The position numbers were made by a program, and so were the translations under genes. A DNA stretch of 57,331 nt, the filler included, from Jimgerdemannia flammicorona (Eukaryota), in assembly GCA_003990765.1 (NCBI GenBank). It is 3 parts of 3 records of this genome, joined end to end, with 100 filler letters (N's around TTAATTAATTAA, not from the genome) between each part and the next. Parts side by side here need not be neighbours in the genome. Positions count along the whole stretch, not along the records: positions 19,153 to 38,193 come from RBNJ01002042.1; 2 more parts are not named here. The stretch is one strand, 5' to 3'. Within the stretch, counting starts at the first letter, position 1; each line of letters starts with the position of its first letter. Of the stretch, positions 3,466 to 54,040 are shown piece by piece. Under the pieces are notes generated by a model. It did not search any database, was not told the DNA's origin, and was given only the letters and a program-made list of their open reading frames with translations.

Positions 3466-5513
3466 TGTAAGTGCACAACCTCCAAGCCACTGAAATTATA
3501 TGTCACCCTCTGAACAAGCCACTGAAATCACACGTGACCTCTGAACAAATCTGGAAATCACCTGCTTGATCATAAAGCTGAGTCAAACTGAAGTCACAGC
3601 ATATAAAGCTGAGTCAATATGAAGTCACAGAACACAAGATTTACACAAATGGAATCTTACCAATCAGGATCAAATACATATATACCAAGCACCGAGATGT
3701 GTCAAATCAGAGAACCAAAACAAAACAACAAACTACAACTTCCAAACATACAAACATGACCACTGAGATCTATACCCATATTCATGCTGACATTTGGAAT
3801 ACCATTATCAACTGAGCCACACCCTCTCTGCCCCTCATGAATATCCATAGCCTAGCACTCCTCTACTTCATGGAAGCCCAATGGAATGCTATGAATATGC
3901 TTAGTAAGGCCCACCAAATTAGACAAATCTCAAGCTACTACCAGATCGGCTGCCTCCTGGAAGGCATGATTGAACACCACTATGATACAGACATTATCCA
4001 GATGTCTCAACATCAGAAGCTCATCGCCTGCAAACATTGAGAACTCTTCTATGAGTATAGCACCATTATTCTCTATCTTCGAGTTACTACAGCTGAAATG
4101 GTTGCTACTCTATCCTATGGCCAAATTGACAATATGATATAAGAACTCAACCATAAGTACCTCGAGTATGTCAAAACTACAGACAGAACCTTCCCACACC
4201 CCAATGATTATATCCTGCAAATGCCCCAAGTTGGATACACTATAAAAGACATCTATGATATAATCCACTTCAATGAAGACAAAGCAGAAGATAATGATCT
4301 CTCTGATACCAACATGACCTCTAGCTAAGGATCTCTGCCAACCCTGATCACACCACCAACCTTGTCAATGAACTTACAACAATTTATAACAGCATATGAG
4401 ACTTATTGGGACAATGACTACTAGCACGAATACCAACCCACATTCACCCCCGATTACTTCAACTACAATGAAGAGACCAGAGAACACAACCTGTACCTCC
4501 AGACAATCCTTGAGATTGAATCAACCACCCCACTACCTGAGTATGAGTGACATGAACCACAGCCGCCAGCTTACTATAACCCTGCAACTCATAGTACTAT
4601 AATCTACCAAAGGTATGTAGACAGCGAATCTGATGAAAGTGAAGATGATGCACCCCTCCTTTGCCCACCAACACCTTATCCAGCATATGAGACTGATGAT
4701 GTCACCTTGTGGGATGGAGATGAAGTTCCAATATATTATTACCTCAGTGAACAAGAAGAAGTAATCCATGAACCACTCTTCCTAGATGACTACTTTATCA
4801 GAGATGATGCAATTGATGGTGATATTATCGAAGACTACCCAGACAGTACCTAAACCTATAAATAGCCTAGCAGTCATAATATACTTAGATTAGCCTTATA
4901 TTATGTGACTGTGAACTAACTCAGCAGTTAGACGATCTCTTGATATGTCAGATCACTCTTGTACTATATGACTACATTCCAACTCAGCAAGGCACTTAGT
5001 GCTACATCTATATCTAACATAGTCTAGATAGCCCCTCACTAGTATAAATACCCCCTCCCCCAGACCTCAGAATCTCAGACTCGAATACATAAGAATATTC
5101 TTGAATACTTCCCCCACAATATCTCTTCACACAACTACTCCTAGTATAGCAATATCATGAATAGCGAATAAATCTATTTAATAACCCACAAACCACTCTT
5201 AAGTAAATCCACTCCCCGTTAGGTCCCACTCCTAACCCCATCATGAAATTTCCTAATTGGGTATTGTCTACAGTGATATGCCAATTCAACTAAGCTGGTC
5301 TTAGTTTCTTGAAGTTTCTGAAATACAGAAAATCCTGAACATCCAGAACTAGTCTGAAAAAGGACTTTGGTTGAGATGTCAACCTGAACTTGAAATTAAT
5401 AAGTGTAGAGGATGTACTCCATATAAAATTGATCCTGACCATAAGAAAACAGTCTTTCAGAATATCCTTCCAGAACTACATAATAGTTACCCTAAAAAAG
5501 CAACCCTCTTACA
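3466..5513 (+). repeat. 5' LTR of A1 (2048 bp)
   Basis: TG...CA ends; direct repeat of 11818-13887; TATAAATA at 5043 and AATAAA at 5167. Confidence 0.95.
3756..4853 (+). pseudogene. 365-codon accessory ORF inside the family A LTR (U3), unknown function
   Basis: ATG(MTTEIY) to (EDYPDST)TAA. The span is the same 1098 nt at 12108-13205 and 49517-50614(-). The stops I traced are C>T/G>A changes that are sense codons in other copies. Confidence 0.8.
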
Positions 5514-11597: not shown

Positions 11598-11804
11598 AAC
11601 CGAATACTCTGACACCTATCCATACATACTATATACTATACCTTCTGAATATTATAATTATCACAAACCAAACCAAGAACTCAGCAAAACAAGACAAGAA
11701 TACCGACCCTCTGGAAAAATAGCAAAACTGAAAACTTTTGACCTCCCAAATGGTGTAACAACACTAGAACAAATTAGAAGGCCCCGATGAGGACATTGAA
11801 AGCT

Positions 11805-11816
11805 AAGAAGGGAGAG
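11805..11816 (+). promoter_or_regulatory. Polypurine tract of A1
   Basis: AAGAAGGGAGAG immediately before the 3' LTR. Confidence 0.85.
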
Positions 11817-11817
11817 T

Positions 11818-13887
11818 TGTAAGTGCACAACCTTCAAGCCACTGAAATTACACATCACCCTCTGAACAAGCCACTGAAATCACACATAACCTCTGAACAA
11901 ATCTGGAAATCACCTGCTTGATCACAAAGCTGAGTCAAACCAAAGTTACAGCATACAAAGCTAAGTTAATATGAAGTCACAGAACACAAGATTTACATAA
12001 ACAGAATCTTACCAATTAGGATCAAATGCATATATACTGAGCACTAAGATGCATCAAATCAAAGAACCAAAACAAAACAACAAACTATAACTTCCAAACA
12101 CACAAACATGACTACCGAGATCTATACCCATATCTGTACTGACATTTGGAATACCATTGTCAACCGAGCCACACCCTCTCTGCCCCTCATGAATATCTAT
12201 AGCCTAGCACCCCTCTACTTTGTGGAAGCCCAATGGAATGCTCTGAACATGCTTAGCAAGGTCCACCGAATCAGACAAATCTCAAGCTACTACCAGATCA
12301 GCTGCCTCTTGGAAGGCATGATCGAACACCACTATGATATAGACATTATCCAGATATCTCAACACCAGAAGCTCATTGCCCACAAATATTGAGAACTCTT
12401 CTACGAGTATAGCACCATTATTCCCTACCTCCAAGTTACTATAGCTGAAATGGTTGCTACCCTGTCCTATGACCAAATCGATGATATAATACAAGAACTC
12501 AACCACAAGTACCTCAAGTACATTGAAACCACAGACAGAACCTTCCCACACCTCAATGATCATATCCTACAAATGCTCTAAGTTGGATACACCATGAAAG
12601 ACATCTATGATATAATCCACTTCGATGAAGATGAAGCAGAAGACAATGATCCCTCTGATGCCAATATGATCTCTAGCCAAGGATCTCTGCCAACTCTGAT
12701 CACACTGCCAACCTTGCTGATGAACTTATAACAATTCATAACAGCATATGAGACTTATTGGGACAATGACCACTGGCACGAATACTAACCCGCATTCATC
12801 CCCAATTACTTCAACTATAATGAAGAGACCAGAGAATACAATCTGTACCTCTAGACAACCCTCAAGATTGAACCAACCACCCTACCACCCAAGTATGAGT
12901 AACATGAACCACAGCCGCCAGCTTACTATAACCCTATGACTCATAGTACTGTAACTTACCAAAGATATGCAGACAGCGAATCTGATGAAAGTGAAGATAA
13001 TGTACCCCTCCTTCGCCCACTAATACCTTATCCAGCATATGAGACTGATGATACCACCTTATAGGATAGAGATGAAGTTCTAATATATTATTACCTCAGT
13101 AAATAAGAAGAAGTAATCCATAAACCACTCTTCCTAGATGACTACTTCATCAGAGATGATACAATTGATAGTGATGTCATCGAAGACTACCCAGATAGTG
13201 CCTAAACCTATAAATAGCCTAGCAGTCACAGTATACTTAGATTAGCCTTATACAATGTAACTGTGAACTGACTCAGCAGTCAGATGATCTCTTGATATAT
13301 CAGATCACTCTTGTACTACGTGACTGCATTCTGACTCAGCAAGGCACTTAGTGTTACATTCATATCTAGTATAGTCCAGATAGCCCCTCACTAGTATAAA
13401 TACCCCCTCCCCCAGACCTCAGAATCTCAGACTTGAACACACAAGAACATTCCTGAATACTTCCCCCACAATATCCCTTCACACAACTACTCCTAGTATA
13501 GCAATATCATAAATAGCAAATAAATCTATTTACATAATAACCCATAAACCACTCTTAAGTAAATCCACTCCCCATTAGGTCCCACTTCTAACCCTATTAC
13601 AAAATTTCCTAATTGGGTATTGTCTGCAGCAATATGCCAATTCAACTAAGCTGGTCTTAGTTTCTTGAAGTTCCTGAAATATGAAAAATCCTGAACATCC
13701 AGAACTAGTCCGAAAAAGGACTTTGGTTGAGACATCAATCTGAACTTAAAATCAATAAGTGTAGAGGATATACTCCATATGAAATTGATCCTGACCATAA
13801 GAAAACAGTCTTCCAGAATATCCAGAATTTCCAGAATATCCTTCCAGAACTACATAATAGTTACCTTAAAAAAACAACCCTCTTATA
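11818..13887 (+). repeat. 3' LTR of A1 (2070 bp), containing the accessory ORF copy 12108-13205
   Basis: Direct repeat of 3466-5513. The terminal CA has mutated to TA. Confidence 0.95.
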
Positions 13888-17796: not shown

Positions 17797-19052
17797 CATC
17801 TTTCTCCGGTAACATTCAGGTTACACAAGACTCAGACAACACTTTCTACAACGTTTTTGGTGTCCAGCGACTAACAACATGGATGGCAACGATCGATCTG
17901 GTGAGCGTACTGGCCAGGGGGATGGTGGCGCCTTTGGCTGGCAGCAGGTGGGGAGGAGGGGAGATGGTTTGGGGATGCCAGGGGCCTCGATGGCTAGCCG
18001 GGGCCCCAGCGGCAGAGGAAGGGGAGGTCTAAGGCAGAGAGGAGGGGAGAGGATGACCTTTGCTGACAAGGTCAGGATGGGGGCGATGGCTTCTGGGCTG
18101 GATAGTTGGCTGGGCCTGGGGAAGGCGTCGATGGCTACTACCGGGGGTCAAGGAGGTGCACCCCAGGGTGCTTCTGGTGGTAGGGAAGGGGCCGGAGTAG
18201 GGGCTGGAGATGTGACGGTTGATGGGGCTGTGACTGGAGATCTGGCAAAAAATCCAGATGTGACGGCAGTTGGCAATTCGGGACTTGAGGTGGGCACGAG
18301 GCCCAGGGACCTGGCGGATGGGGTGATAGGCATGGTGTCGGCCCCGTTACTCAAGAAGTCGAGGTCCGAATTCGCGGTCACGATGTGCTTCCGGGGCTTG
18401 GCAGTGACGGCGAGGATGATTTTGGGGCTGGTGGCGCAGGAGGCTAAGGGAGCAGCGTCGGTGAAGTTTTTGAGGGGAAAGGAAGGGGTTGAAGTGGGGT
18501 TCGAGGAGGAGGATGCCTTGTTGGCAGCCATGGAGAAAGGGGTGATGGTTGGTGGGGTGGTGGTCCCTATGGCTCAGTGTATGCACTGGGACCCCCGGGT
18601 GGTGCAGTTGACGGTGTTGGACCTCCCTATGGTGTCGAAGGAAAGGACCAGGGAGTTGGTTGTAGAGGCGATAAAGGAGTATGGCGAGATTGTGGACGTG
18701 GGGTTCAAGGTCTGGGAGGGCACGGAGCTTAGAACTGGAGATGTCGATGTCAGGGTGAGACTGGCTGGGAAGGAGAATACGGGGAAGTCGAGGGACTGGC
18801 CAGCAGCGCTGAGGTGGGGACAAGTGGAGTGTAAGGTCGCTAGGGTAAAGGGGACTCAGGAGGAGGAGGAGGACTTGCTGGAAGCTCTGGAGGACCTGGA
18901 AGGGGCTGTTGCAAGGAGGAGATTAGCCTGGAAGGAGTTCGAGGCCAGGATGGTGGTGGGGGAGGTGGATGGGAAGAGGGTTCGGATGGAGAAAGGGGCC
19001 TGGGAGAAGATGCAGGGGAGGAGGATTCAGAAGGAGTTGTTGGCAAAGTTGG
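17797..19052 (+). mobile_element. LINE copy 2, 5' end, truncated by the assembly gap
   Basis: Highly similar to 52011 onward and starts at the same 5' position. Confidence 0.9.
17879..19052 (+). CDS. LINE ORF1 protein (partial, open up to the gap)
   Basis: Uninterrupted frame, close homologue of 52081..54009. Confidence 0.85.
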
Positions 19053-19152
19053 NNNNNNNNNNNNNNNNNNNNNNNNNNNNNNNNNNNNNNNNNNNNTTAA
19101 TTAATTAANNNNNNNNNNNNNNNNNNNNNNNNNNNNNNNNNNNNNNNNNNNN
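19053..19152. other. Assembly gap with artificial TTAATTAATTAA linker
   Basis: 44 N + six-frame-stop 12-mer + 44 N. Identical construct at 38194-38293. Confidence 0.97.
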
Positions 19153-19987
19153 GGAAAAGAATCACAAGGCCCTAGAACCCATCCGAATTGGAGAAAAGGT
19201 TCTACTGTATCGAAATATGGTAGAAGCCTCATGGTCATGAAAACTGGAGCCCAAATGGGAAGGACCCTTCTACGTGCAAGATATCAAGGGAACTACCTTC
19301 TGGCTTAGAAAAATCTCAGGGACCATACTGCCTACCACGGTATATAGGAACAGACTCAAGAAGTACCATGAACCTATACAAGAGAAGCAAAACGTGATGA
19401 CCGCCCACGAGGTTCTAGTCCGCGAATCATAACAGCATGTCCCGTGACCAGCAGGCTATCTGTCTGGACCATTCTCTAAGGGATACGGCACTGGCAACTA
19501 CTCATCCATGAAGACTTTCGCAGTCAGAGGAGTTCGAACCGTCAACTGATTGGTCAGGATCAGAATCAGGCCCTTGCTCTATATGAAGGGAGCGACCCTT
19601 CACCATCACACCAAAATACAAAGGGAAGACACCAGCCCATAAACACCAGTTTTTGACCCCTTGCCAGAGGTTATGGGATCAGCAAATTTTTCAGGACTGG
19701 ACCAATGAATAAGGACGCTCAGGAAGATCCTAATTCAGGAGGAAGATGTAATAGTGACCCCAGAATGATGACATCAGCACAGGAGACAGCCTTTCCTTAC
19801 AAGCCACCAGATCAGAGTACAAGAAGATCATATGGCATGCAAGATAGGCAACGATGACCAACTGTGAGTTATTGTGACCACAGCACAAGCATCCTGAAGA
19901 ATATAAAAGAAGGATCAAGGAACCGCAGTAACAGCAACCAACAAGAACCCCAATCCCAAAATAGCTCAAAGACTTACCACAAACAAA

Positions 19988-20824
19988 ATGCCTGCTGCCC
20001 GCCAAACCTCAAGGTCAAGGAATCATCAAGGTATCTCAGTCGAGAAAAGGATGTTTCAAGACATCAGAAGAGCCATGAGGACCCGCTCAAGAAGGACTCC
20101 TAGCATCAACCTGGGTACTGCAGACCCTTATCACTTTATCCTCTACTGCTGTGAAATGGAAACAAGGATCACCATTGTCACCGAATACCTCCAAATGTGG
20201 CAGGAGTATGAAATAGGAAACCTCCTCTGCTGGGAGTTCCCACAGGCCAGCCCTCAAGAGCTACAAGATGCCACCCCCATAGACCTACGTGAGGCAAGGA
20301 CAGCAAAGAAGATCCATCAGATCTTCAGGCATGCACCATGGTCAATCCCCAACTTGGAGTATGTTAGAGTCTCAGACTTCAGAGACCTGTCATCCCGCCG
20401 AATCAATGCACTAGAAGTCAGGGTGGCTACAGAAGCCTGGTCCACTATCACCCTCAACAGCGAAGAAGTAGAAGACTTCTGGCACCCTATCCTTCAGGAC
20501 AACCCAGACCAGTTCCTGCAAGAGTTGATCTCAGTATTCCAAGGCCCAAGCATCCAGGTCAGACCTCCCCAGGACCCCACATTTGTCCCTTACTTTGTGG
20601 AAGAGAACCTCATAGACTGGAGAGCTCCAGATCTTGTTCCCGATTTCCCCGCCGAACATGATGACGTCATCGGTGATGACGTCATCCCACGTGACATACC
20701 CGAAGCACGCGAACCACGTGATGAAGTACGCGAAATGCGTGACCTGCATGAAGAGTTCGCAGATCTCATCTCCTTCAGTGATGATGATGATGAAGCTCCC
20801 ATGATCCTGAACTTTCTGCTCTAA
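19988..20824 (+). CDS. Intact 278-aa accessory ORF inside the family B LTR, unknown function
   Basis: Open frame wholly within the LTR and upstream of TATAAATA at 21036. A decayed second copy lies at ~45058-45885. Acidic C-terminus. Confidence 0.8.
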   Translation: MPAARQTSRSRNHQGISVEKRMFQDIRRAMRTRSRRTPSINLGTADPYHFILYCCEMETRITIVTEYLQMWQEYEIGNLLCWEFPQASPQELQDATPIDLREARTAKKIHQIFRHAPWSIPNLEYVRVSDFRDLSSRRINALEVRVATEAWSTITLNSEEVEDFWHPILQDNPDQFLQELISVFQGPSIQVRPPQDPTFVPYFVEENLIDWRAPDLVPDFPAEHDDVIGDDVIPRDIPEAREPRDEVREMRDLHEEFADLISFSDDDDEAPMILNFLL

Positions 20825-20834
20825 AAAGTTCTTT

Positions 20835-20960
20835 GTTACACTGGATAATGCCAGCACCAGTATTCTCATGTAATACTGGATAATGCCAGCACCGGTATTC
20901 TGAGGTGACGTGAAATTGTTCCAGCACTGGCATTTTGATATGATACTAAATAATGCCAGC
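20835..20960 (+). repeat. 35-bp tandem repeat in the family B U3 (2 units plus degenerate parts)
   Basis: Unit CTGGATAATGCCAGCACCAGTATTCTCATGTAA(T/C)A. Four units occur in the other copy. Confidence 0.85.
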
Positions 20961-21273
20961 CTTGGAACTTAGTAGTTTTAGTTATTGGAATTTATATTTA
21001 GCTTTATACCTTAGCAACTATTGAATTATATTTTGTATAAATACCTCTCTTATTTCTTCTGAAATAAAGTCAGTTCTATCCAGTTCACTTACACACTTCC
21101 TTGCAAGCAATCTAAGAGATAACAAGATAGTTAAAGATAAGAAGTTTGAGGACTATAAGACCTTGGGAAGGCACTCCAATAAGAACTTGCTTATAACAAC
21201 TTGAGTTAGTCTAAGAGATATACCTTGAAGAGAATCTGGCGTATTTGAAGGACTCAGTAACCACTACGTGACA

Positions 21274-24167
21274 CTGTATAGATATATTCTGTCCTGATGG
21301 AGGTGCATCTCCTTTGGTGGTATATCTGGGATCGAATTCACTGAGATACTCCTCCTTCTCTTTAGTTTGGTCCCTGTGTAGTTGGGTTTGCTCAGCATCA
21401 AAGTAGACAGAATCAGTTATATATCTGATTTCGGATGGACTTAATTCAAAGTCAAGTTCTGGTTTGGTGTTGGTTTCAGATTCAGATAGAGCTGTAGCTA
21501 GTCCTGCTTCCAGTTTGGGGTCAGATTGTTGATGAAGGGTTTCTCTTACTTCTTCTTTAAGAATATAGTGGGCCTTGCTATTCTGGAATCAGTAGTATAA
21601 TGTAGTCTTGGTCCTGGTATGGTGAAAGTTGGTAGAGTTGAGCCATTTGGCTATAGAGGCTTGGGCTTTGTGAGAGACTAAGGCTAGAAAGACTGCTACT
21701 GGTTATCCTAGGTTACTTGGATTTGTGGAGCTGATAAAACTCTTATTGAGAAGAGTAAAAAAAGCTTCTATAGACCTTCTTCATCCTGACTTGCTGGGTA
21801 TAGTGCAAGGAGTTCGGTGAATAGGGTTTCACCTATTTGCTGATTTAACTGGAGTATTTCTTTCTTCAAATGAAGTTTGTCCCACTTGTTGTAGGTATGG
21901 AGGTCAAATTGTCCTTGTACATCAGGTTCAATTCTCTCCAGATTGTCAGATAGTTCAGGATAAATTCCAGTTCAGAGGTTGGGCTTTATACCAACTTGTA
22001 GGAATTCTCAGAGGGATTTGTAGTGGGGTGAGGAAGTATCTTGAAGTAGAATTTGGATTGTAAACTGCTGCTATCAAGTTGTAAGAGGGTTACTTTTTAG
22101 GGTAACTATTATGTAGTTCTAGAAGAGTTTTCTGAAAGTTCTGAATATTCTAAAAGACTGTTTTCTTATAGTCAAGATCAATTTCATATAGAGTACATCC
22201 TCTATACTTATTGATTTCAAGATCAGGTTAACATCTCAACCAAAATCCTCTTTTGGACTAATTCTGGATGTTCAGGATTTTTCATATTTCAGGAAGTTCA
22301 AAAAACTAAGACCAGCTTAGTTGAATTGGCATATCACTGCAGACAATACCCAATTAGGAAATTTTCATGACAGAGTTAGGAGTGGGACCTAATGGGGAGC
22401 AGATTTACTTAAGAGTAGGTTGTGGGTTATTAAATAGATTTATTCACTATTCATGATATTACTATACTAGGAGTAGTTGTGTAAAGGGATATTGTGAGGA
22501 AGTACTCAGAAGTTGTGTTTGGATTGTTCAGGTCTTTAAGTTTGTTTAAGTCTGAGATTCTGAGGTCTAGGGGAGGGGGTATTTATACTAGTGAGGAGCT
22601 ATCTGGACTATGCTAAATATAGATGTAGCACTTAGTACCTTGCTGAGTCAGAATGCAGTTATGTAGTATAAGTGTGATCTGACATATCAAGAGATCATCT
22701 GACTACTGAGTTAGTTTACAGTCATATCATATAAGGCTAATCTAACTATACTATAACTGCTAGGCTATCTATAGATTTAGATACTATCTGGGTAGTCTTA
22801 AATGACATCACCATCAATGACATCATCTCTGATAAAGTAGTTATCTAGGAAGAGTTATTTATGGATTAATTCTTCTTATTCACTGAGGTAGTAATATATT
22901 GGAACTTTGTTACTATTCTATAGGATAGCATTGTCTGTCTCATATGCTGGGTATGGCATTGGTGGGCAAAGGAGGGGTACATTATTTTTGCTTTCATCAG
23001 ATTCACTATCTGCATACCTTCTATAGGTTACAGTACTATGAGTTGCAGGGTTGTAGTAAGCTGGTGGCTGTAGTTCATATCACTTGTACTTGGATGGTAG
23101 AGTGGTTAGTTCAATCTTGAGAGTTGTCTGAAGGTACAGGTTGTGTTCTCTGCTCTCTTCATTGTAGTTGAAGTAATCAGGAGTGAATATAGGTTAGTAT
23201 TCATACCAGTGGTCATTATCCCAGTAGGTCTTGTAGGTGGTTATGAACTGTTGTAAGTTCATCAGCAGTATTGGTGGACTGATCAGGGTTGACAGAGATC
23301 CTTGACTTGAGATCATGTTGGTGTCAGAGAGATCATTGTCTTCTGCTTCATCTTCATTAAATTAGATTATATCATAGATATTCTTCATCATGTATCCAAC
23401 TTGAGGCATTTGCAGAATATGGTCATTGGGGTGTGGGAAGGTTCTGTCTGTGGTCTGGATATATTCAAGATACTTGTGGTTGAGCTTTTATATTATATTA
23501 TCGATTTGGCCATAGGACAGGATAGTAACCATTTCGGCAGTAGTAACTCAGAGGTGGGGAATAAAGGTGCTGTACTTATAAAAGAGTTCTCAATGTTTGC
23601 AGGCAATGAGTTTCTGGTATTGGGACATCTGAGTGATATCTGTATCATGGTGGTATTCAACCATATCTTCTAGGAGGCAGCCAATCTGGTAGTAGCTTGA
23701 GATTTGTCTGATTCAGTGGGTCTTACTAAGCATATTCAGAGTATTTCATTGGGCTTCTATGAAGTAGAAGAGTGCTAGACTATGGATATTTATAAGGGGT
23801 AGAGGAAGTGTGGCTTAGTTGATAATAGTATTCCAAATATCAGCACAGATGTGGTTATAGATCTCAGTAGTCATATTTGTGTATGTTCAGAAGTTATGGT
23901 TGTTGTTGTTTGTTTTGATTCTCTGTTTCGACATGTCTTAGTGCTCAGTATATATGTATTTAGTCCTAATTGGTAAAATTCTGTTTGTATAAATTTTGTG
24001 CTCTGTGACTTTGTATTGACTCAGCTTTGTGTACTGTGACTTCAGTTTAACTCAGCTTCGTGATCAAGCAGATGATTTCCAGATTTGTTTGGAGGTTGCG
24101 TGTGATTTTGGTGGCTTGTTCGGAGGGTGATATGTGATTTCAGTGGCTTGAAGGTTGTGCACTTATA
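21274..24167 (-). mobile_element. Gypsy family A copy A2, 5' portion (LTR 22080-24167 plus start of the internal region), interrupted by B1
   Basis: Reverse complement of 3466 to ~6319, including the PBS region. Confidence 0.92.
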
Positions 24168-25458
24168 CAACTAGTAGTCATAGTTATCCAAAGTAGTATA
24201 ACTATATATAAATATATCTAGTATATTATATTTAATTATTATATATAAATACTCTCTATACTGAGTATATTATAATCTCAGCTCTGCTTGCCTTATATAT
24301 AAGAATAAAGAAATATTTTTATTACAATTTCTCAGATCTGACTTATTAATAATTCTGAGCCTAATTAACTTAGAATATAAATATAGCTATTTCTATCTAT
24401 ATAAGAACTCAAAAGCAATATCTAAACTCTGCTATATTAGGTAATTAGAACTCAGTACTTTCTTAAGAACTCAGAACTTAGGACCAATAGTCATATTGAT
24501 TATTCATAATATATTAATTCTATTAATATAGTTTTATTATAATTTAATAGCAGCAAATAGTTACTTTCTATCCATAAACAATCTTTTTTTAAGAATTTAC
24601 TATAGACAATCAGAACTAATCAATATTACTAATATTGTCAGTAATAGTCAAGATAAACCTTCACCCTGGATACTCCTCAGACCTAAGTAGAAAAATTTAA
24701 TAAAATTATTATCAAGTAAACCAAAACCTATACCAACTAAGAGGAGTTTGACAAACTCAATAAAAAAAACCATCTAAGAAGTATTCAACATCTTTCTTGT
24801 ATTCAATAAAGAAGTTTTCTATATTTCTAAACTTAATGAGGATTTCAACAAACTAATTGGTAGCTACTTTTATAAAAAAATATACTTAAGAATCTATTGA
24901 GGCTATAACTGAACACTTCCTAAAGAACCTCTCAAACAATTACTACTATAAAGCCAAGACCTTCTTGAACTATAAAAAATACTACTCTTATTAAAAGAAA
25001 TTTTACTTTTATTATCAAATTCTTTACATATAAGTAAAAATAATCTAATAATAAGAACTACAAGCTACCAGATCTAGTGAAGCCCCTGCTATATCATCCA
25101 GACCTAAGAAAATAATCAAAGAAATACCTAAACCAGATATTAGTAGCCCCAGCACTATTACAGAACTATCACCAAGAATATTAAGTCTACTAAAGATCAC
25201 AGCAGACCAAATAGTTATTCTATTAAAATTATTAGTCTTCAGACTCACCCATCTCAGCAATATTATGGAAGAATTAAGTTCAAATCATAATTGATATACT
25301 ATAATAATAGAAGAAGACAAAACTCAACTATCTCTAGCAAAATAATATCAGCAGATGATAAGATAGCAATATTGACTGATTAAGTAGCCATACTCACTCA
25401 AGCCCTTTATCTCAGTATTGAAATGAACAAATCTACAAAAGAACTCTACCTCACCCCA
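24168..25458 (+). mobile_element. Highly decayed, probably retroelement-derived sequence
   Basis: AT-rich with A/C-skewed, codon-like stretches similar to the Gypsy leader regions here. No diagnostic motif. Confidence 0.25.
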
Positions 25459-26830
25459 TATAAGAGGGTTACTTATTAAGATAACTGTTATATAGTTCTG
25501 GAAGAATTTTCTGGAAGTTCTAGATATTCTAGAAAACTGTTTTTTTAAGGTTAAGATCAATTTTGTATAGAGTATATCCTTTATGTTTATTGATTTTAAG
25601 ATTGGATTGATGTCTCAACCAAAGTCCTTTTTCAGACTAGTTCTGGATATTCAGGATTTTTTATATGTATTTCAGGAAGTTTAAGAAACTAAGACCAGCT
25701 TAGTTGAATTGACATATTACTATAGACAATATCTAATAAAAATTTCATAATAGAGTTAGGAGTGAGACCTAATAGGGAGTAGATTTACTTAAGAGTAGTT
25801 TGTGGGTTATTAAATAGATTTATTCACTATTTATGATATTTCTATATTAGGAGTAGTTTATATAAAGGGATATTGTGGAAAAGTGCTCAGAAGTTATATT
25901 CAGAATACTTAAGTCTTTAAGTCTAAGATTCTGAGGTCTGGGAGAGGGGATATTTATACTAGTGAGGGGCTATCTGAACTATATTGAATATAGATGTAGT
26001 ACTTAGTATCTTACTAAGTTAGAATGTAGTTATGTAGTATAAGTGTGATCTGACATATTAAGAGATCATCTGACTGCTGAGTCATTTCACAGTTACATTA
26101 TACAAGGTCAATCTAACTATATTAATAACTGCTAAGTTATCTATAGATTTAGATGCTATTTGGGTAGTCTTTGATAACATCACTATTGATGATATCATCT
26201 CTGATAAAGTAGTTATCTAGAAAGAGTGGTTTACAGATTACTTCTCCCTGCTTACTAAGATAATAATACATCAGGACTTTATTATCATTCTATAGGATAG
26301 TATCATCTGTCTTATATACTGAGTATGGAGTTAGTGGGCAAGAGAGGGGTACATCATCTTTACTTTTATCAGATTTACTGTCTGCATACCTTCTATATAT
26401 TATGGTACTATAAGTTGCAGAGTTGTAGTATACTAGTGGTTATACTTTATATTATTTATACTTAGGTGGTGGAGTTATTAGTTCAATCTCAAGAATTGTC
26501 TAGAGATATAGATTGTATTCTCTAGTCTCTTCATTATAGTTAAAGTAACTGGGGGTAAATATGAGCTAGTATTCATACCAGTGGTTATTATTCCAATAGA
26601 TCTTATAAGTGGTTATGAACTGTTATAAGTTCATCAATAAGGCTAGTAGAGTGATCAGGGTTGGCAGAGATCCCTGGCTCAAGATTATATTGACATCAGA
26701 GAGATCATTGTCTTCTGCTTTGTCATCATCAAATCAGATTATATCATAGATATTCTTCATGATATATCCAACTTAAAGTATTTGCAGAATGTAGTTATCA
26801 AGGTATAAGAAGATTCTATCTGATAATCTT
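25459..26830 (-). repeat. Truncated, decayed family A LTR (U5/R and 3' part of U3)
   Basis: Starts TATAAGAGGG (reverse complement of the LTR end) and follows the 22080 LTR for ~1.37 kb. Confidence 0.9.
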
Positions 26831-32676: not shown

Positions 32677-33859
32677 GGAGCTCTATTATGGAATCATCAC
32701 ATACCTGGGACAGCAAAAGATGCCCCAATATCTGGAAGAATGGATACAAACAATTATCAACAGGACATGAAAACAATTCGAAACCGATGGAGAAATACTG
32801 AAGAAAGGAAAACTACTGGTCATACCAGAACACAAGAAGGAGCAAGCGATGAAATCAGTACATGAACTTGGCCACTTAGGAGGAACAAACATACATGACA
32901 AGGCAAGAAGAACAATATGGTGGCCAGGAATGGAGGAAGATATCAGACAATTCGTCAAAACATGTGACAAATACCAGAAACAGAAACAAGACCAACAGAA
33001 TCAAGCCCCAGGATCAGCACACATAGAACCAGTACCATTTGTCCATATAGCAATGGATGTAATCGGCCCTCTACCCTTGACCCTGACTGGTAACCGATAC
33101 ATCATTGTCATCGTAGACCTTTTTATGAAGTGGATAGAAGCAGGATCTCTCAAGGAAGCCAATGCACAGTCAATTGCCAATTTCTTCCACAAGGAAATCA
33201 TCTGCCAGTTCAAGACCCCAACACAAGTAACTACAGATAGAGGAACAGAATTCGTGAACCAGCTCTTTGAGGTTCTCTACAAGAAGTACAAGATCTAGCA
33301 CATTCAGACCACAGCCTATCACTCTCAAGGAAATAGACAAGTAGAAAGGACCAACAAAACCCTCAAGAATGTTATCGTCAAGATCTGTAATAACTACGAG
33401 AACTGGAATCACTATCTGCCAATAGTATTATCTGCTCTCCGGGATATCCGATCACAAACCACCCACTTTACCCCCTGAGAAATACTGTTTGGAGAAGAAT
33501 GTTCTCAAGGAACCCTATCATCCAATGCAGATGCTGTATGGAAACATGTGGACATTGAAATATGGAGACTACACCAAATCAGGAAGAAGGCTGAGGATTA
33601 CATAACCAAGACACAGACACTACAATGGAGGAATGCGGAAAAGATCCACAAGCCCTTGGAGATTATCAAGATAGGAGACAAGGTCCTGGTGTATCGGAAC
33701 ATAGTAGAAGCTTCATGGTCATGAAAACTGGAGCCCAAGTGGGAAGGACCTTACCTTGTGCAAGATATAAAAGGGACCACCTTTTGGCTACGAAAACCCT
33801 CAGGCACAATAATCCCCACCACCATTCACCGAAACTGACTCAAGAAATATCATGGCTAG
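32669..33859 (+). pseudogene. Family C integrase, apparently a separate ORF with its own ATG
   Basis: MNKELYYGIITYL..., H..GH/CxxY remnant, MDVIGPLP, TDRGTEF, VERTNKTLK and GPY. A few nonsense codons; no chromodomain. Confidence 0.85.
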
Positions 33860-34286
33860 TAACAAAAGTACTGCAATGGCACTCAAGATCACTAGTGTTG
33901 CCCAAAGAGCCATCAAAAGACAATGGCACACCACCGAGCCTCCGACCATAGAGCTATACTATGAGGATATTCAGAGTATTATGCAGACTCATCTCTCTTG
34001 GATTTCACACTTTAGAGCCTATCAATATTGGACAGAATTCCAAGAGTACTTCAAGCTTGGACAGGTACTCAATCAGGATCCAGCAAAGATCAAGGAGGAC
34101 TGGATTGCCGAGTGTCAACTCTCCCACTCCCAGATCACTATTGCCAAAAGGATCCACAAGTTATTCCGAGAAGATGAAGCAGCGATAGACCACCTGAGAG
34201 GAGTAACTCCTACCAACTTTGAGAAAGTGAGAAGACATCATTGGGAAACAGTCATGCAGCAAATCGCACAGTACAAGGCCATATAG
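33852..34286 (+). CDS. 144-aa accessory ORF between integrase and the 3' LTR (env position), unknown function
   Basis: Intact ORF whose ATG overlaps the integrase stop. It shares motifs with the LTR ORFs of A and B. No transmembrane segment seen. Confidence 0.75.
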   Translation: MASNKSTAMALKITSVAQRAIKRQWHTTEPPTIELYYEDIQSIMQTHLSWISHFRAYQYWTEFQEYFKLGQVLNQDPAKIKEDWIAECQLSHSQITIAKRIHKLFREDEAAIDHLRGVTPTNFEKVRRHHWETVMQQIAQYKAI

Positions 34287-34827
34287 ACTGTTGAAGCCTG
34301 GGAGTTTGAATAGATGCCTCAGGGACGAGACCATCCATTCAGGAGGAAGTTGTGATGGTACAGCCAGATTTGGAAGAAGGAAATAGGGAATAGACACTTG
34401 ATTGCACCCATTCCCAAAGTAGTATAGCATTATAGTTAGCAGTCCTCAATTTCGATATTGTCTAAATTCTTAGACATTGTCTAAATTTTAGATATTATCT
34501 AAATTGGATACCTCGATTTAGTATAGCATTTAGACATTGTCCAAATGTTTTGACAAAGTCCAAATGACTCATTTATTACTTAGCCACTCTCTCATAGCTA
34601 GCAAACTTGTATAAATAACCCAGTATCTTCGAGTGAATAAACCTTAGATCGAAATAGTTCAAAGCAAAGAGATAGCAAAGGAACTAGTAAGCCTGTGGGC
34701 AGATACACTTCGAACTCACCCACCCTCCCCTGCAACTTCAAGAAGACTCTGCAAGAGTCAGAACAGTCAAGTTTTCAAGATACAGAGATCTGACGTACTT
34801 TCAAGAGTAAGCATCTACTATGCTACA

Positions 34828-35832
34828 ATATATAACTCAAAATTGGTTAGAAAAATTAATATGAAGTTAAAAAAGAAATTTATTATGATAGATATAAAAG
34901 AGAAGATATTTTAAAAGATAGAATAATATTTTTAAATTAAATCAGTATTTAGGAAAAAATTCTAATAATATCTGATGAAGATGATATTGAAAAATTATTT
35001 TATCCTGAGCTTAAAATTAAAAATTAATAAAAAATATTATATTTTTATTACCTATGATAAATCTGTATTTTATTCAAATAATAGTAAAAAATTAATTTAT
35101 ATCCTTAAGATGAAATATATTTTTTAAAAAAAGAAAAAGGATATATACTAATAGAGAGTAAATTTTTAACTAGAACAATTAGACTTTTATATTTAAATAA
35201 AGAATAACAATTATTATTTTCTAATATAACTAAAATAACTAAAGAAAAAATTAGATCAGGAGTTAATAGAGATAGTTGGTAGGCTGCTGAAGATATTATT
35301 AAATAAGTAAAAAATAAAGCAATTTCTATCTTTAAACTATATATCTTGATTATATTATAATTATTACTTTTGATAATTCAACAGAATATTAAGCATTTAT
35401 AGAAGATTTTTTAAATATTAATAAAATGAATTTAAATTGAAAAGAAAAATAAAAAAAAAATTAAGAAATATAATTTTAAAAAATAGTGAAATATAGTTCA
35501 TAAATTTTAAAGATAATTATTTTAAAGAAGAAAAAAGAGATCAACTAAAAGAAATGAAAATAATTTTACATAAAAGAGAATTATAAAAAGATAATTTATT
35601 AAAAATTTGTTAACAATATATTAAAATTAAAGAAAAACATTTAAGAAATGATTATTATATATAGAGAATTTTAGAATTACTATCTGACTTTTTAAATCAA
35701 AAATGTATACTTGAAGAAATTATTACTAAAGCTGGGCATAAAATTATTTTTTTTCCAAAATTTCATTGTGAACTTAATTATATTGAAATATATTGGAGAG
35801 CTGTAAAATTATTAATAAGAGAATATTATAAT
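34828..35832 (+). pseudogene. Decayed IS630/Tc1/mariner-like DDE transposase, probably beginning upstream of the family C insertion
   Basis: Remnants IYYD(GH)..RED, LLFDNST, DFLNQKCILEEIITKAGHKIIFFPKFHCELNYIE.YW. Confidence 0.75.
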
Positions 35833-36600: not shown

Positions 36601-36684
36601 ACATGACTCATATGCCAGACATGTCCACAACACAACACACACACACGCATACATACACATGTACATGCAAACACGCAAACACAC

Positions 36685-44815: not shown

Positions 44816-47800
44816 TGTAATAGTGACTCCAGAATGATGACATCAGTATAGGAGACAGCCTTTTCTTGCAAGCCATCAGATCAGAGTACAAGAAGATTAT
44901 ATGGCATATGAGATGAGCAATAATGACCAACTGTGAGTCATTGTGACCACAGCACAAATATCCTGAAGAATATAAAAGAAGGATCAAGGAACTACAGTAG
45001 CAGCAACCAATAAGAACCACCAATCCCAAAATAGCTCAAAGACTTACCACAAATGAAATACCTACTGCCTGCCAAACCTCAAGATCAAGGAATCACCAAG
45101 GTATCTCAGCTGAGGAAAGAATGTTCCAAGACATCAGAAGAGCCATGAGGACCTGCTCAAGAAGGACTTCTAGTGTCAACCTGAGTACTGCAGACCCTTA
45201 TTACTTCATTATCTACCACTATGAAATAGAAACAAGGATCACTATTGCTACCAAATGCCTCCAAATATGGCAGGAGTATGAAATAGAAAACCTCCTCTGC
45301 CAGGAGTTTCCACAAGCCAGCACCCAAGAGCTATAAGATGCCACTCCCATAGATATACACAAAACAAGGATAGCTAAGAAGATCTATCAGATCTTCAGGC
45401 ATGCACCATGGTTGATCTCCAACTTGGAGTATGTTAGAGTCTCAGACTTCAGAGACCTATCATCCTGCTGTATCAATATACTAGAAGCCAGGGTGGCTAC
45501 AGAAGCCCAGTCCACTATCACCCTCAACAGTGAAGAAGTAGAAGACTTCTGGCACCCTATCCTTCAGGACAATCCAGACCAATTCCTGCAAGGATTGATC
45601 TCAGTATTCCAAGGTCCAAGCATCCAGGTTAGATCTCCCCAAGACCCCACATTTGTTCCTTATTTTGTGGAAGAGAATCTTATAGACTGGAGAGCTCCAG
45701 ACCTTGTCCCCGATTTCCCCACCACAGCTAAACATAATGACGTCATTGATGACATCATCCTATGTAACATACCCAAAGTATGTAAAGTACATGAAATGCA
45801 TGACCTATATGATAAATTCATAGATCTCATCTCCTTCAGTGATGATGATAATGAAGCCCCCATGATTCTGAACTTTCTGCTCTAAGTTCTTTGTTATACT
45901 GGATAATGCCAGCACCAGTATTCTCATGTTACACTGGATAATGCCAGCACTGATATTCTCATATAACACTAGATAATGCCAGCACTGGTATTCTCATGTA
46001 ACACTGGATAATACCAGCACTGATATTCTGAGGTGATGCGAAATTGTTCCAGCACCGGTATTTTGATGTGATACTAAATAATGCCAGCATCCTGAACCTA
46101 TATAATCATCATTACCGACTCTGGAACTTAGTAGTTTTAGTTATTGGAATTTATATTTAGCTTTATATCTTAGCAACCATTGAATTGTATTTTGTATAAA
46201 TACCCCTCTTATTCCCTCTGAAATAAAGTCAGTCAAGTTCTGGTTTCACTTATACATACTTCCTTGCAAGCAATCTAAGAGATAACAAGACAGTTAAAGA
46301 TAAGAAGTTTGAGGACTATAAGACCTTGGGAAGGCACTCCAATAAGAACTTGCTTATAACAACTTGAGTTAGTCTAAGAGATATATCTTGAAGAGAATCT
46401 GACATATTTGAAGGACTCAGCAACCACTATGTGACAACTTAGTGCCCATTGGCTGGTAATTCAAGATAAATTCCTCACTTTCAAGCTGAAAAATGAACAA
46501 CCTCCACAATAACTACCCTGACTACAAGAGTTACCCCTGCAAGAATTCAAGATAAGATAGAAATGCATCTCCCCACATTCTATAGATATACTACTGAAGA
46601 GTCAATCCTGACCTTCATTGAAGACTTTGAACAATTCACCACCATATGAGCCCTTGGTGTGGATGCTCAATTGGCCCTTCTACCAGTCAGTCTTAGAGGA
46701 CCTGCCAGAGATAAGTTCAATGCAGCCACCATTGCTGATGCTGGTGCAGCCAAACTTGCCAACATAAAGGTCTTTCTTAGAACAACATATTATACTGAAG
46801 AGATCAAGCAAGCTCTCAAGGATCAACTCAATACTATCTGCCAGAGACTTAGTGAAGATCCCAACTCATTCTATACCTGAATTTGTCACCAGATTGTCTT
46901 GGCTGGCTATGATGACTGCCTCAAGGAACAAATAGTGGATTCAACCTTCCTCAAAGGAGTTCACTCTGAAATTGCCCTAGCAATCTGGTCTACCCCAGCT
47001 GCACTGACCCTTGATCAGAAAGTGGTCTTTGCACAGAGATATTGGACTGCCAGACACCCTGCCGAACACTCAATAGAGAAAATAACTGGCATCAAATGGA
47101 GTCATCAAAGCCAACTAGTATCTTATCTGCCATAGTTGTAAACAGACAACCAACCCTACCTACCCCCAAGATAGCCAAAGCTGACCCAGTGGAAGAACTT
47201 GCCAAGCAGTTCGCTGAGATGACTACACATCTCAGTGATGTTGTTAGAGAAGTCTGAAGTACCAACAGGAGACCAGTGTAGAGATTTGCAGCTGCTACAG
47301 AAGAATACAATATCATATGCTTCAGATGTGGAGAAGAAGGCCACTATGCAAAGAGTTGCATGACCGAAACAAGATACAAAGCCCAACCAAGCAATACTAG
47401 CAGAACTAGAGAACAAACCAATATAGTAGTCATTGAGGAGATCAGTGACACTGATGATGAAGAATACTATGAGGAGCTCGAATTCTACCCTGCTACTGAA
47501 GATACCAGAACCTGGTCCAAGCCCTATGATAAGAAGAGCAATAACAAGCCAGTTGGAAGACCAAAGAAGACTCCAGCTGTCACTATTCAAAGCAAGACCC
47601 AACCCGAGGAGATTGATCAAGACATGGAGTTAAATGAAGCTGCCTGCCAAATTATCGAAGGCACTACCCCAGTCTCAGGAGAAAGTGAGAGCAAGAAGGA
47701 ACAGAAGCTGCGCAAGACCAAGATCCATCAGTATGACATCTACAAGGACCTCAAGGAACAGAAGGTCAATACCACTTTTGGGCAGCTAGCTGAAGTCTCT

Positions 47801-48869: not shown

Positions 48870-51800
48870 TATAAGAGGGCTACTTTTTAGGGTGACCGTT
48901 ACGTAGTTCTGGAAGACTGTTTTCTTATGGTCAAGATCAATTTCATATGGAGTACATCCTCTATGCTTATTGATTTCAAGATTGGGTTGATGTCTCAACC
49001 AAAGTCCTTTTTCGGACTAGTTCTGGATATTCAGGATTTTCTGTATTTCAGGAAGTTCAAGAAACTAAGACCAGCTTAGTTGAATTGGCATATTGCTGCA
49101 GACAATACCCAATTAGGAAATTTCGTGATGGGGTTAGGAGTAGGATCTAACAGAGAGCGGATTTACTTAAGAGTGGTTTATGGGTTATGGAATAGGTTTA
49201 TTTGCTATTCATGATATTGCTATACTAGGAGTAGTTGTGTGAAGGGATATTGTGGGGAAGTGCTCAGGAGTTGTGTTCAGATTGTTCAAGTCTGAGATTC
49301 TGAGGTCTGGGAGAGGGGGTATTTATACTAGTAAGGGGCTATCTGGACTATGCTAGATATGGATGTAGCACTAAGTGCCTTGCTGAGTCAGAATGCAGTC
49401 ATATAGTACAAGTGTGATCTGATATGTCAAGAGATCATCTGACTGCTGAGTCAGTTCACAGTCACGTCGTACAAGGCTAATCTAACTATATTATGACTGC
49501 TAGGCTATTTATAATTTTAGGCGCTGTCTGGGTAATCTTCGATGACATCACCATTGATTGCATCATCTCTGATGAAGTAGTTATCTAGGAATAATGGTTT
49601 GCAGGTTACTTCTCCTTGTTCGCTGAGGTAGTAATACATTGGGACTTCATCTCCATCCCACAGGATAGCATCATCTGTCTCGTAGGCTGGATAGGGTGTT
49701 GGTGGGCGAAGGATGGGTGTATTGTCTTCGCTTTCGTCAGATTCACTGTCTGCATACCTTCTATAGGTTACAGCACTATGAGTTGCAGGATTGTAGTAAG
49801 CTGGCAGCTGTGGTTCATATTGCTTGTACTCAGGTAGTGGAGTGGTTGGTTCAATCTCGAGGGTTGTCTAGAGGTACAGGTTGTATTCTCTGGTCTCTTC
49901 ATTGTAGTTGAAGTAGTCGGGGGTAAATGCGGGTTAGTATTCGTGCCAGTGGTCATTATCTCAATAAGTCTCGTATGCAGTTATGAACTGTTGTAAGTTC
50001 ATTGGCAAGGTTGGCGGAGTGATCAGGGTTGGCAGAGATCCTTAGCTAGAGGTCATGTCAGCGTCAGAGGGATCATTGTCTTCTGCTTCATCTTCGTCGA
50101 AGTGGATTATATCGTAGACGTCCTTCATGGTGTATCCAACTTGAGGAATTTGCAGGATATGGTCATCAGGGTGTAGGAAGATTCTGTCTGTGGTCTCGAC
50201 GTACTCAAGGTACTTGTGGTTGAGTTCTTGTATCATGTCATCGATTTGGCCATAGGACAGGGTAGCAACCATTTCGCTGGTAGTAACTCAGAGGCGGGGA
50301 ATAAAGGTGCTGTACTCATAGAAGAGTTCTCGATGTTTGCAGGCAATGAGCTTCTGGTGTTGAGACATCTGGGTAATGTCTGTATTATGGTGGTGTTCAA
50401 TCATGTCTTCCAGGAGGCGGCCAATCTGGTAGTAGCTTGATATTTGTCTGATTTGGTGGGCCTCGCTAAGCATGTTCAGGGCATTCCATCGGGCTTCCAC
50501 GAAGTAGAGGAGTGCCAGGCTATGGATATTCATGAGGGGCAGAGGGGGTGTGGCTCGGTTGACAATGGCATTCCAAATGTCAGCATGGATACGGTTGTAG
50601 ATCTCAGTGGTCATGTTTGTGTGTTTGGAAGTTGTGGTTGTTGTTTTGTTTTGGTTCTCTAATTTGATGCATCTTGGTGCTCGGTATATATGCATTTGGT
50701 CCTGATTGGTAAGATTCCGTTTGTGTAAATCTTATGTTCCATGACTTCATATTGACTCAGCTTTGTACACTGTGACTTCGGTTTGACTCAGCTTCATGAT
50801 CAAGCAGGTGATTTCCAGATTTGTTCAGAGCTCGCGTGTGATTTCAGTGGCTTGTTCAGAGGGTGACGTGTAATTTTGATGGCTTGGAGGTTGTGCGCTT
50901 ACAACTCTCCCCTTCTTAGCTTTCGATATCCTCATCAGGGCCTTCTAATTTGTTCTAGTATTGTTATACCATTTGGGAGGTCAAAAGTCTGGTAAGGTCT
51001 ATTTTCTCAGAAAGTGGCATGCTCATAGTACAGTTGTCTAACGCATTGGATTCACATGTTAAAGGGTTGTGTGTTCAATGCCATGCGCTGGAAGTGATTC
51101 TGATGTCATTCACTGCTGGAGAATTTCCTCTAAGGAATCTTCTTAATGTCTATGCCTTGTTTCCCACCAGTGGTACAGGGAGAATAAGCTTGCTTTCAGT
51201 TTTGCTATTTTTCCAGAGGGTTGGTATTCTTGTCTTATTTTGCTGAGTTCGTGATTTGGTTTGTGATAGTTATAATATTCAGAAGAGTAATATATAGTAT
51301 GTATGGATGGGTATGGAATATTTGGTTCTAGTTGTTCAAAGAATCATATTCCTGAACTAGATCAGTAGCATTCTGAAGGTTGGTCTTGGGTTCCTAGGTT
51401 GCATCATAGATTGGGTAACCTTTCTATTTGACAAGGTACTCAGGATGGTTCTTGTTGCCACGTTTGTTGAGGATTTGTTCAACTTTGTACTCTTCTTGGT
51501 CATTAATGATGATAGGTGCAGGTGGTTTGGTAGTGTGATTTGGAAATAGCTCGTCATCATTATCATTGTATCGCTTGAGATGTTGAACATTAAAGACTAG
51601 GTGAATCTTAATGGTGTCTGGTAGTGCCAGTTTGTAGGAGGTTGGAGAGACTTGTGAGATAACTTCAAATGGTCCAATGAACTTGCTATTCAGCTTAGTA
51701 GATGGTCTGTGCTTAAGGTTGTCAACTCGGTATCCTCTGATGTCTAGTAGGACTTTTTCTCCAATATCAAAAGTTTCTTCTCGGCAGTGTTGGTTAACAT

Positions 51801-52010: not shown

Positions 52011-52080
52011 CACCTTTCACCAGTAACATTCAGGTGACACAAGACTCAGACAACACTTTTTACAACGTTTTTGGTGTCCA

Positions 52081-54009: not shown

Positions 54010-54040
54010 GTTGAGGTCTCTTCTACAATATCTACCCAAT

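Follow-up and report, generated by a model that had tools for sequence, protein, structure and literature searches.

Do the extra open reading frames (ORFs) found in three families of Gypsy retrotransposons of the fungus Jimgerdemannia flammicorona encode one and the same accessory protein, and what could such a protein do for the elements that carry it? The window considered here is the whole stretch of 57,331 nucleotides (nt), filler included, that joins three parts of three records of GenBank assembly GCA_003990765.1. Its three Gypsy families, termed A, B and C, were delimited by self-BLAST, Pfam scans of open frames and inspection of junctions, and the limits of their long terminal repeats (LTRs) were set by self-BLAST together with the polypurine tract and the primer-binding site. 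Our comparisons show that the extra ORFs of A, B and C belong to one undescribed family of retrotransposon accessory proteins with an all-helical N-terminal domain, and it is very probable that they represent a real, homologous and selected gene of transposable elements. The three ORFs are as follows.

19988..20824, plus strand: ORF B, intact, 278 amino acids (aa); shared helical domain at about residues 7-150 (nt 20006-20437), then an acidic and aromatic tail
33852..34286, plus strand: intact ORF C of 144 aa, with little beyond the shared domain; internal, upstream of the polypurine tract
3756..4853, plus strand: ORF A as found in the 5' LTR of the A element, with 6 in-frame stops among 365 codons; shared domain at about residues 3-135 (nt 3762-4160)

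An initial annotation of this DNA had located ORFs B and C correctly, and they are open over 278 and 144 aa; the frame it gave for ORF A is present but broken by its six stops. The two conserved blocks that it quoted are exact for B and C, whereas the strings given for A are not the letters of 3756-4853. This copy reads YYQIGCLL and IACKH*ELFYEYSTIILYLRV; what was quoted combines several copies and comes nearest to the one at 49520-50614 on the minus strand, with the stop replaced.

One Domain in the ORFs of Three Families

The shared module consists of the N-terminal ~135 aa and ends at about residue 135-150. B and C can be related directly, both by BLASTP (E 0.005) and by hhalign of their family alignments (E 4.1e-5, probability 70%). 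A does not join them so readily: BLASTP of A against B (E 1.1) and hhalign of the A family profile against those of B and C (E 0.17 and 0.056) are not significant, and the family HMMs (hidden Markov models) of B and C, run over the six-frame translated window, reach A only at E 1-3. Word-indexed database searches with the three queries returned 6, 8 and 1 relatives, while with a joint B and C profile an exhaustive search of 1.84 billion proteins brought up 11 at E <= 0.001, the divergent P0018-P0023 among them. The widened B/C alignment, A5, has 16 rows and not a single A sequence.

Aligned with the A alignment by hhalign, A5 matches over 129 columns (A 3-135, B 7-150) at E 2.1e-6 with a probability of 89%. 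As a control, a local repeat of the comparison scored 44.9-47.2, against 12.4 +/- 2.5 (maximum 21.0) for 100 column shuffles and 13.4 for the reversed alignment. Used by hmmsearch on 576 six-frame chunks of the window, the A5 HMM recovered all four full A copies (E 2.5e-9, 9.1e-7, 2.9e-6 and 3.7e-6), the best unrelated chunk standing at E 0.32. The profile comparison that the initial annotation had proposed as a check thus fails for A on shallow alignments and succeeds for B with C and for A with the widened profile, and its claim of one homologous domain in all three families holds. Beyond the domain no homology was detectable: the C-terminal tail of A, compared with that of the B group, scored 14.6, and 60 shuffles gave 13.1 +/- 2.8.

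Two Gypsy Lineages

Family A is represented by a full element with 2-kb LTRs (TGTAAG...CTTACA, at 3466-5511 and 11818-13885), in whose internal region the Pfam scan recognised gag, dUTPase (E 1.6e-27), protease, reverse transcriptase (RT), an integrase SH3 domain and a chromodomain. Because the chromodomain stands at the integrase C-terminus (Chromo, PF00385, E 2.6e-13 at 11124-11817, and 2.4e-10 in a minus-strand copy), A is by its domain content a chromovirus. Of family C, too, there is a complete element, bounded by LTRs of 478 bp (28094-28571 and 34351-34828) and coding for gag, protease, dUTPase, RT, RNase H and integrase. No Chromo match was obtained for its integrase tail in the scan that detected PF00385 in A, and the RTs of A and C are 37% identical over 193 aa. 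Family B has left two fragments only, one at 19153-21274 (integrase tail with 77% DNA identity to C, 376 nt, polypurine tract and a 1528-bp LTR) and another at 44816-48870 (a 1.6-kb LTR, a primer-binding-site-like sequence and gag-protease, gag-PR).

B and C have in common the polypurine tract ATTCAGGAGGAAG (19732-19760 in B, 34337-34365 in C), similar LTR starts (TGTAAT/TGTGAT), a similar primer-binding-site-like sequence (ACTT[A/G]GTGCCCATTGGCT, at 46438-46460 in B and 28572-28595 in C) and gag and gag-PR proteins that are 52-54% identical in amino acids. They are sister families, neither with a detected chromodomain. The initial annotation had called A chromovirus-like and assigned B and C to another Gypsy lineage, and both assignments stand; the module also occurs in more than one lineage, as it had stated, although these are two and not three independent ones, and it may either have moved between them or have been inherited and diverged.

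Position of the ORFs Within the Elements

In families A and B the gene lies inside the LTR itself. ORF A occupies A-LTR positions 291-1388 and its region is found in 5/5 A LTR copies, and ORF B occupies B-LTR positions 242-1078, with its region in 2/2 copies. The LTRs and their signals are listed below.

3466..5511, plus strand: family A 5' LTR, TGTAAG...CTTACA; TATAAATA at 5043-5050, AATAAA at 5167-5172, TATATAC 77 nt before the ORF A ATG
11818..13885, plus strand: family A 3' LTR, of the same element as the 3466 LTR; holds the ORF A copy 12108-13202 (365 codons, 8 stops)
22082..24172, minus strand: family A LTR; holds the ORF A copy 22780-23874 (365 codons, 13 stops)
25461..26822, minus strand: family A LTR, partial; holds the C-terminal 223 codons of ORF A (26152-26820)
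48872..50903, minus strand: family A LTR; holds the best-preserved ORF A copy, 49520-50614 (365 codons, 5 stops)
19737..19746, plus strand: family B polypurine tract, AGGAGGAAGA, immediately 5' of the B LTR; an identical tract occurs in C
19747..21274, plus strand: family B 3' LTR, from a TGTAAT start to a GTGACA end with the whole ORF B inside; this copy of the element is truncated upstream by an N run
20838..20995, plus strand: 35-bp tandem repeats, just 3' of the ORF B stop and 5' of the LTR TATAAATA; second copy at 45861-46088
21036..21068, plus strand: promoter-like core of the B LTR, TATAAATA (21036-21043) and AATAAA (21063-21068), 3' of ORF B
44816..46437, plus strand: second family B LTR (5' LTR) with a decayed ORF B copy at 45058-45885, then the primer-binding-site-like sequence and gag-PR (46396-48870)
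34351..34828, plus strand: family C 3' LTR (5' LTR at 28094-28571); TATAAATA at 34610-34617, AATAAA at 34636-34641

ORF B starts 241 nt into an LTR that begins at 19747, right after AGGAGGAAGA, and at 44816 the same LTR is preceded by unrelated AT-rich DNA and followed by gag; ORF B is therefore truly part of the LTR. In the second copy of ORF B (45058-45885) the ATG is changed and there is one in-frame stop. The core motif TATAAATA stands 3' of the ORF in both families (LTR position 1290, that is 21036-21043, in B and LTR position 1578 in A), and in all three LTRs it is followed by AATAAA (B 21036/21063, C 34610/34636, A 5043/5167). With the promoter assigned by this motif, ORFs A and B would lie in U3, the unique 3' region, between the 5' end of the LTR and the core promoter with its poly(A) signal. 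The 35-bp repeats that follow ORF B are enhancer-like by position.

ORF C is placed differently. It comes after the integrase tail, ends 64 nt short of the 3' LTR and 5' of the polypurine tract, and its start codon overlaps the pol stop codon (33852-33859, ATGGCTAG), an arrangement that would also allow termination-reinitiation from genomic RNA. ORFs A and B come after the polypurine tract, within the LTR, and the families differ only in whether this tract precedes the gene (A, B) or follows it (C). With the tract upstream, the gene falls into the LTR (U3) and is therefore copied to both LTRs; with the tract downstream, it becomes an internal third ORF. The analogy with retroviral U3 genes drawn in the initial annotation consequently fits A and B, and not C, whose ORF is outside the LTR. 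Like additional ORFs of other LTR retrotransposons, all three lie inside the element, 3' of integrase and on the gag-pol strand, and the counts for A and B show a gene carried by most copies and not a one-off transduction. C occurs in the window as one full element and two solo LTR fragments, the latter unable to hold an internal ORF.

Conservation and Decay of the Gene

Relatives with intact frames occur on other contigs at 38-91% identity to B and 62-77% to C. The database relatives, P0001-P0038, are all on short contigs (0.5-4.8 kb) from JGI/IMG and ENA, either unnamed or called 'hypothetical protein', and the contig sizes would fit transcript assemblies. In the window, the four full A copies keep exactly 365 codons each with zero indels in spite of 5-13 stops, whereas whole A LTRs vary in length (2046, 2068, 2091). 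The ratio of nonsynonymous to synonymous substitution (dN/dS), calculated by the Nei-Gojobori method, which skips stop codons, from copies in which 271/299 variable sites are transitions, is 0.16-0.25 between A elements in the ORF frame and 0.56-0.99 in the two off-frames. Between the two LTRs of one A element it is 0.37, and this pair serves as an internal neutral control because both LTRs must have diverged neutrally. In B, the only indels between the two copies measure 3 and 12 nt, and the dN/dS is 0.40 against 0.56 and 1.12 off-frame. A ratio near 1, which the initial annotation had named as an argument against its proposal, was thus not found between A elements, the signal being moderate.

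The decay of the A copies has a pattern of its own. Among the 299 variable sites of the four copies (3756-4850, 12108-13202, 22780-23874 and 49520-50614) there are 177 C/T and 94 A/G transitions, and their commonest contexts are CpA/TpG (78/177 for C/T, 51/94 for A/G), a signature like that of repeat-induced point mutation (RIP) and in keeping with DNA of a fungus. AT-rich blocks of the window (GC content 0.25-0.32) may be older products of the same RIP-like process.

Predicted Structure and Searches for Known Relatives

AlphaFold2 gave a confident model of ORF C from a 24-row alignment (predicted local distance difference test, pLDDT, 85.3; predicted template modelling score, pTM, 0.77), composed of seven helices, two of them long (2-22 and 40-73) and five short. 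For ORF B a 12-row alignment yielded a pLDDT of 42 and the model is unusable, and prediction of an ORF C homodimer scored 0.07. The N-terminal 40 residues bear a net charge of +9 in B and +7 in its relative P0031, and the tails of A, B and most relatives are rich in aromatic residues with a net charge of -7 to -13 per 40 residues. An acidic tail is missing from ORF C and its relatives. Such a basic start in B and close relatives, joined to an acidic aromatic tail, is a layout that we speculatively compare with that of nuclear regulators with activation-type tails. The highest Kyte-Doolittle means over 19 residues are 1.14 (A), 0.81 (B) and 0.16 (C), the usual threshold for a membrane segment being 1.6. 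No segment is membrane-like, and therefore the proteins are not Env-like, in agreement with the initial annotation.

None of the searches led to a known family. Pfam gave no match for B or C, and for A only a weak PelG match to a 67-aa fragment (3837-4037, E 0.042), well under the cut-off; over 24 family members the most-shared Pfam families, TBK1_ULD and HTH_Tnp_Mu_2, were found in only 2/24, as was the most-shared PHROGs family. A sequence search of the PDB with the family profile had a best E of 1.6. The ORF C model had no Foldseek match at E <= 0.001 in the PDB, a comparison also suggested in the initial annotation, and none in BFVD, a set of viral models, while VIA-align against 48,161 chains gave a best Z of 3.6 with no chain at Z >= 5. 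A protein atlas queried with ORF B returned no useful match, and scans of metagenome contigs with P0021 and alignment A4 found no relative. The N-terminal domain of YhcG (DUF1016) was considered as a candidate and rejected (hhalign E 0.43 against E. coli YhcG, 0.24-0.35 against a 71-sequence profile).

Candidate Promoters of the Accessory ORFs

A TATA-like motif precedes each of the ORFs at a similar distance.

19902..19909, plus strand: TATAAAAG of B, 86 nt before the ORF B ATG; kept in the second B copy at 44971-44978
33766..33773, plus strand: TATAAAAG of C, 86 nt before the ORF C ATG, inside the coding part of pol; at the homologous codons B pol has GATATCAAG, without a TATA

The distance from TATAAAAG to the ATG is exactly 86 nt in both B and C, and in A an invariant TATATAC stands 77 nt upstream of the ORF A ATG. 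The C pol codons that form TATAAAAG differ synonymously from those of B pol. Between the stretch upstream of ORF B and the tail of C pol there is no nucleotide homology (local score 21 against 19.2 +/- 2.3 for shuffles), and therefore the equal spacing is not simple inheritance. TATAAAAG occurs 13 times in the 57 kb on both strands, against 3.98 +/- 1.86 expected from shuffles (0/100 shuffles reach 13); from 13 occurrences, simple arithmetic gives an expectation of ~0.017 per 150-nt upstream window. With a TATA 77-86 nt upstream and the AATAAA of the LTR downstream, a short separate mRNA is possible, and judged by these motifs the chance that each ORF forms a transcription unit of its own is about even.

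Proposed Function and Its Closest Rival

Based on the above, we propose a scheme of which the functional steps are speculative. Transcription of each ORF would run from its own TATA to the LTR AATAAA and yield a short mRNA, for which in A and B any LTR copy could be a source. The protein would act in trans as a nuclear factor that raises the expression of its own element, by transactivating the LTR or by counteracting silencing by the host. For this the helical domain may bind nucleic acid or chromatin proteins, and the acidic, aromatic-rich tail of A and B may recruit host factors. As a whole, an accessory family with its own transcription unit and an expression-promoting product is the best explanation that we can offer, yet a tentative one with somewhat less than an even chance; the expression-promoting function taken by itself, be it transactivation or anti-silencing, is suggested by protein architecture and must be called rather doubtful.

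Several results weigh against this scheme. Since ORF C and its relatives lack the acidic tail, a tail-dependent mechanism of activation cannot be general. No significant similarity to a known DNA-binding or activation domain was found by Pfam, PDB sequence search, Foldseek or VIA-align. The reading of TATA and poly(A) signals is motif-based and post hoc, and the signal of selection is moderate, not decisive, since the method passes over stop codons and transitions strongly dominate the mutations. Finally, only 11 clusters among 1.84 billion representatives match the family, all on short contigs without context.

The strongest competitor is a cofactor of replication, which would bind the RNA, cDNA or integrase of the element and aid packaging, nuclear import or choice of target. 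A small all-helical domain is what many nucleic-acid chaperones and adaptors have, C conserves just this core without the acidic tail, and the overlap of the ORF C start with the pol stop means that the protein could be made from genomic RNA along with pol. However, the family shows no similarity to gag or to a known retroelement protein, either in Pfam or when the A, B and C HMMs were compared with the gag/pol regions of the window (no match at E < 1), and in A and B separate expression is suggested by a location in U3 with a TATA ahead of the gene. We consider a replication cofactor unlikely, and on speculative grounds favour the expression-promoting trans-factor over it.

Similarity to DUF3102 and Exchange Between Lineages

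DUF3102 (PF11300) is a domain of unknown function in bacteria, phages and plasmids. Could the retrotransposon domain be a distant offshoot of it, acquired once by a Gypsy element and then passed among Gypsy lineages by recombination? Weak signals in this direction were repeated in fold, language-model and profile comparisons. Foldseek against BFVD placed DUF3102 proteins at ranks 10 and 11 (E 1.3-1.4, template modelling score 0.37-0.44), though every fold match lies above E 1, and DUF3102 clusters make up 9/30 named hits of a protein-language-model search (score 0.90). A sample of 22 DUF3102 ORFs, from 19/401 sampled bacterial genomes and all matching the Pfam model (22/22), was aligned by hhalign with the core of our family at E 4.5e-4 to 6.5e-4 (probability 27-33%, score 31-34), against 10.5 +/- 2.1 (maximum 17.2) for 100 shuffles and 13.0 on reversal, in the register IG..L / ..TA....A..F. 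When the tool's own alignment of the same 22 ORFs is used, the result drops to E 0.0061 and a probability of 6%, and 0/24 family members match the Pfam model at E <= 1. A solved DUF3102 structure was not found by sequence search.

The two domains are thus alike in being helical, of similar size and in sharing the pattern IG..L ... (S/T)..TA....(V/I)A..F in the same register. They differ in that DUF3102 is prokaryotic, the retrotransposon family misses the Pfam model and the profile-profile probability is only 6-33%; in addition, at least 2 of the 22 sampled sequences match coiled-coil families such as Filament at E <= 0.01. As for the exchange by recombination, ORFs B and C are ~22% identical while their gag-PR reach 52-54%, and the ORF follows the polypurine tract in B and precedes it in C. 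Fast evolution of an accessory gene explains the divergence just as well, so that it fits an arms-race type of gene and an exchange equally. Taken together, descent from DUF3102 followed by transfer is improbable. More improbable still is the extended version in which the A and B LTRs would be self-contained cassettes (TATA, ORF, enhancer-like repeats and poly(A) signal) that make a family-protecting or family-activating protein even from solo LTRs, with a domain derived from a prokaryotic or phage DNA-binding module of DUF3102 type and exchanged between chromovirus and non-chromovirus.

The ORFs could also be passengers of which the elements make no use today, whether a relic or a piece captured from the host. 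Their function is only predicted, every A copy and one of the two B copies in the window are dead, and the family is rare in databases. On the other hand, the domain has been retained in two Gypsy lineages with RTs only 37% identical, intact divergent homologues occur, the in-frame dN/dS is lower than that of the neutral LTR pair, length is kept without indels, and the ORF region is held by 5/5 A and 2/2 B LTR copies in the window, all of which makes a passenger very improbable. Chance or composition as the cause of the likeness of A to B and C, with only B and C related, would explain the non-significant direct comparisons and the E 1-3 of the single-family HMMs, but is scarcely credible and already largely refuted by an A-free profile that finds A at E 2.1e-6 (hhalign) and 2.5e-9 (hmmsearch), with a real score of 45-47 against a shuffle maximum of 21, a reversal at 13.4 and the next six-frame match at E 0.32.

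Comparison With Known Systems

Most of the extra genes known from LTR retrotransposons code for enzymes or Env-like proteins, and in fungi hardly any is understood. In bdelloid rotifers, two reports describe ORF3 types common to unrelated retroelement lineages (PMC5408684; PMC7264820), and a study of fungal Gypsy elements draws an 'add. ORF with unknown function' in some of them (PMC2864245), which may overlap with the ORFs described here. Extra ORFs in LTR retrotransposons and the sharing of ORF3 between lineages are already known. The present ORFs resemble such additional ORFs in being a sense gene between pol and the 3' LTR in most copies, in occurring as the same module in different lineages, and in residing in elements that also carry dUTPase. 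They differ in that the rotifer ORF3s are recognisable enzymes or Env-like while our domain has no Pfam match, and in that two of the three families hold the gene inside the LTR itself. ORF0 of rice Retrosat2 is located upstream of gag-pol and not in the LTR.

Botrytis brtn is reportedly an antisense extra gene. The sag gene of mouse mammary tumour virus (MMTV) and the 3' part of HIV nef are encoded in U3, and in foamy viruses an internal promoter embedded in env drives tas/bel. Like the retroviral U3 genes, the coding sequence fills U3 in A and B and is hence duplicated in both LTRs, and as in foamy viruses the element has a candidate promoter in its interior, which in C lies within pol as the foamy one lies within env. 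Unlike these, the fungal ORFs have no sequence relation to the retroviral genes (0 Pfam matches) and a fungal rather than a vertebrate host, and promoter and product activity are here deduced from motifs. VANC proteins are the anti-silencing proteins of VANDAL DNA transposons; they are comparable as fast-evolving, non-enzymatic accessory proteins encoded by a transposon, of the functional class that we deem most likely, although they belong to another class of transposon and the analogy is functional only.

Neither this domain nor a conserved protein gene within the LTRs of fungal Gypsy elements was found to be described in the literature, in a search that did not extend to subscription journals and supplementary files. 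What seems to be new is a family of accessory proteins whose location in U3 is unusual and which has its own candidate promoter: a non-enzymatic domain without a known family, kept in two Gypsy lineages, evolving much faster than gag and pol (~22% against 52-54% identity between B and C), and in two families turned into a part of the LTR and so duplicated at each insertion. Should the protein turn out to raise expression or to counter silencing, fungal retrotransposons would have in it an equivalent of VANC and of the regulatory genes of retroviruses, and it would give a handle on how such elements evade genome defence in repeat-rich fungal genomes. A profile built from alignments A6 and A9 enables a systematic survey.

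Other Features of the Window

The dUTPase is placed differently in the two full Gypsy elements. In A (7401-8200, E 1.6e-27) the gag zinc knuckle precedes it and the protease comes next, and in C (30389-31051, E 4.1e-16) it follows the protease, the two being 35% identical over 94 aa. A variable position of dUTPase has been described among basidiomycete Gypsy elements (PMC2864245).

The window also contains a GC-rich (0.53-0.57) non-LTR retrotransposon at 52011-57331 with a long ORF1, an Exo_endo_phos endonuclease and an RT; the ORF1 product has 642 aa and no Pfam match. Three partial or diverged non-LTR copies are found at 17797-19052, 14173-16832 and 1998-2690, and an ORF at 17879-19108 is an ORF1 of such an element interrupted by an N run. 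Runs of 44 N, which are masked or gap sequence, come in two pairs with 12 bases between the members (19053-19096/19109-19152 and 38194-38237/38250-38293), and the pairs coincide with truncation of elements, at the junction of the non-LTR element with family B at 19.1 kb and beside a solo C LTR at 38.3 kb. A tandem-repeat array with a 14-bp period extends from 36255 to 36601.

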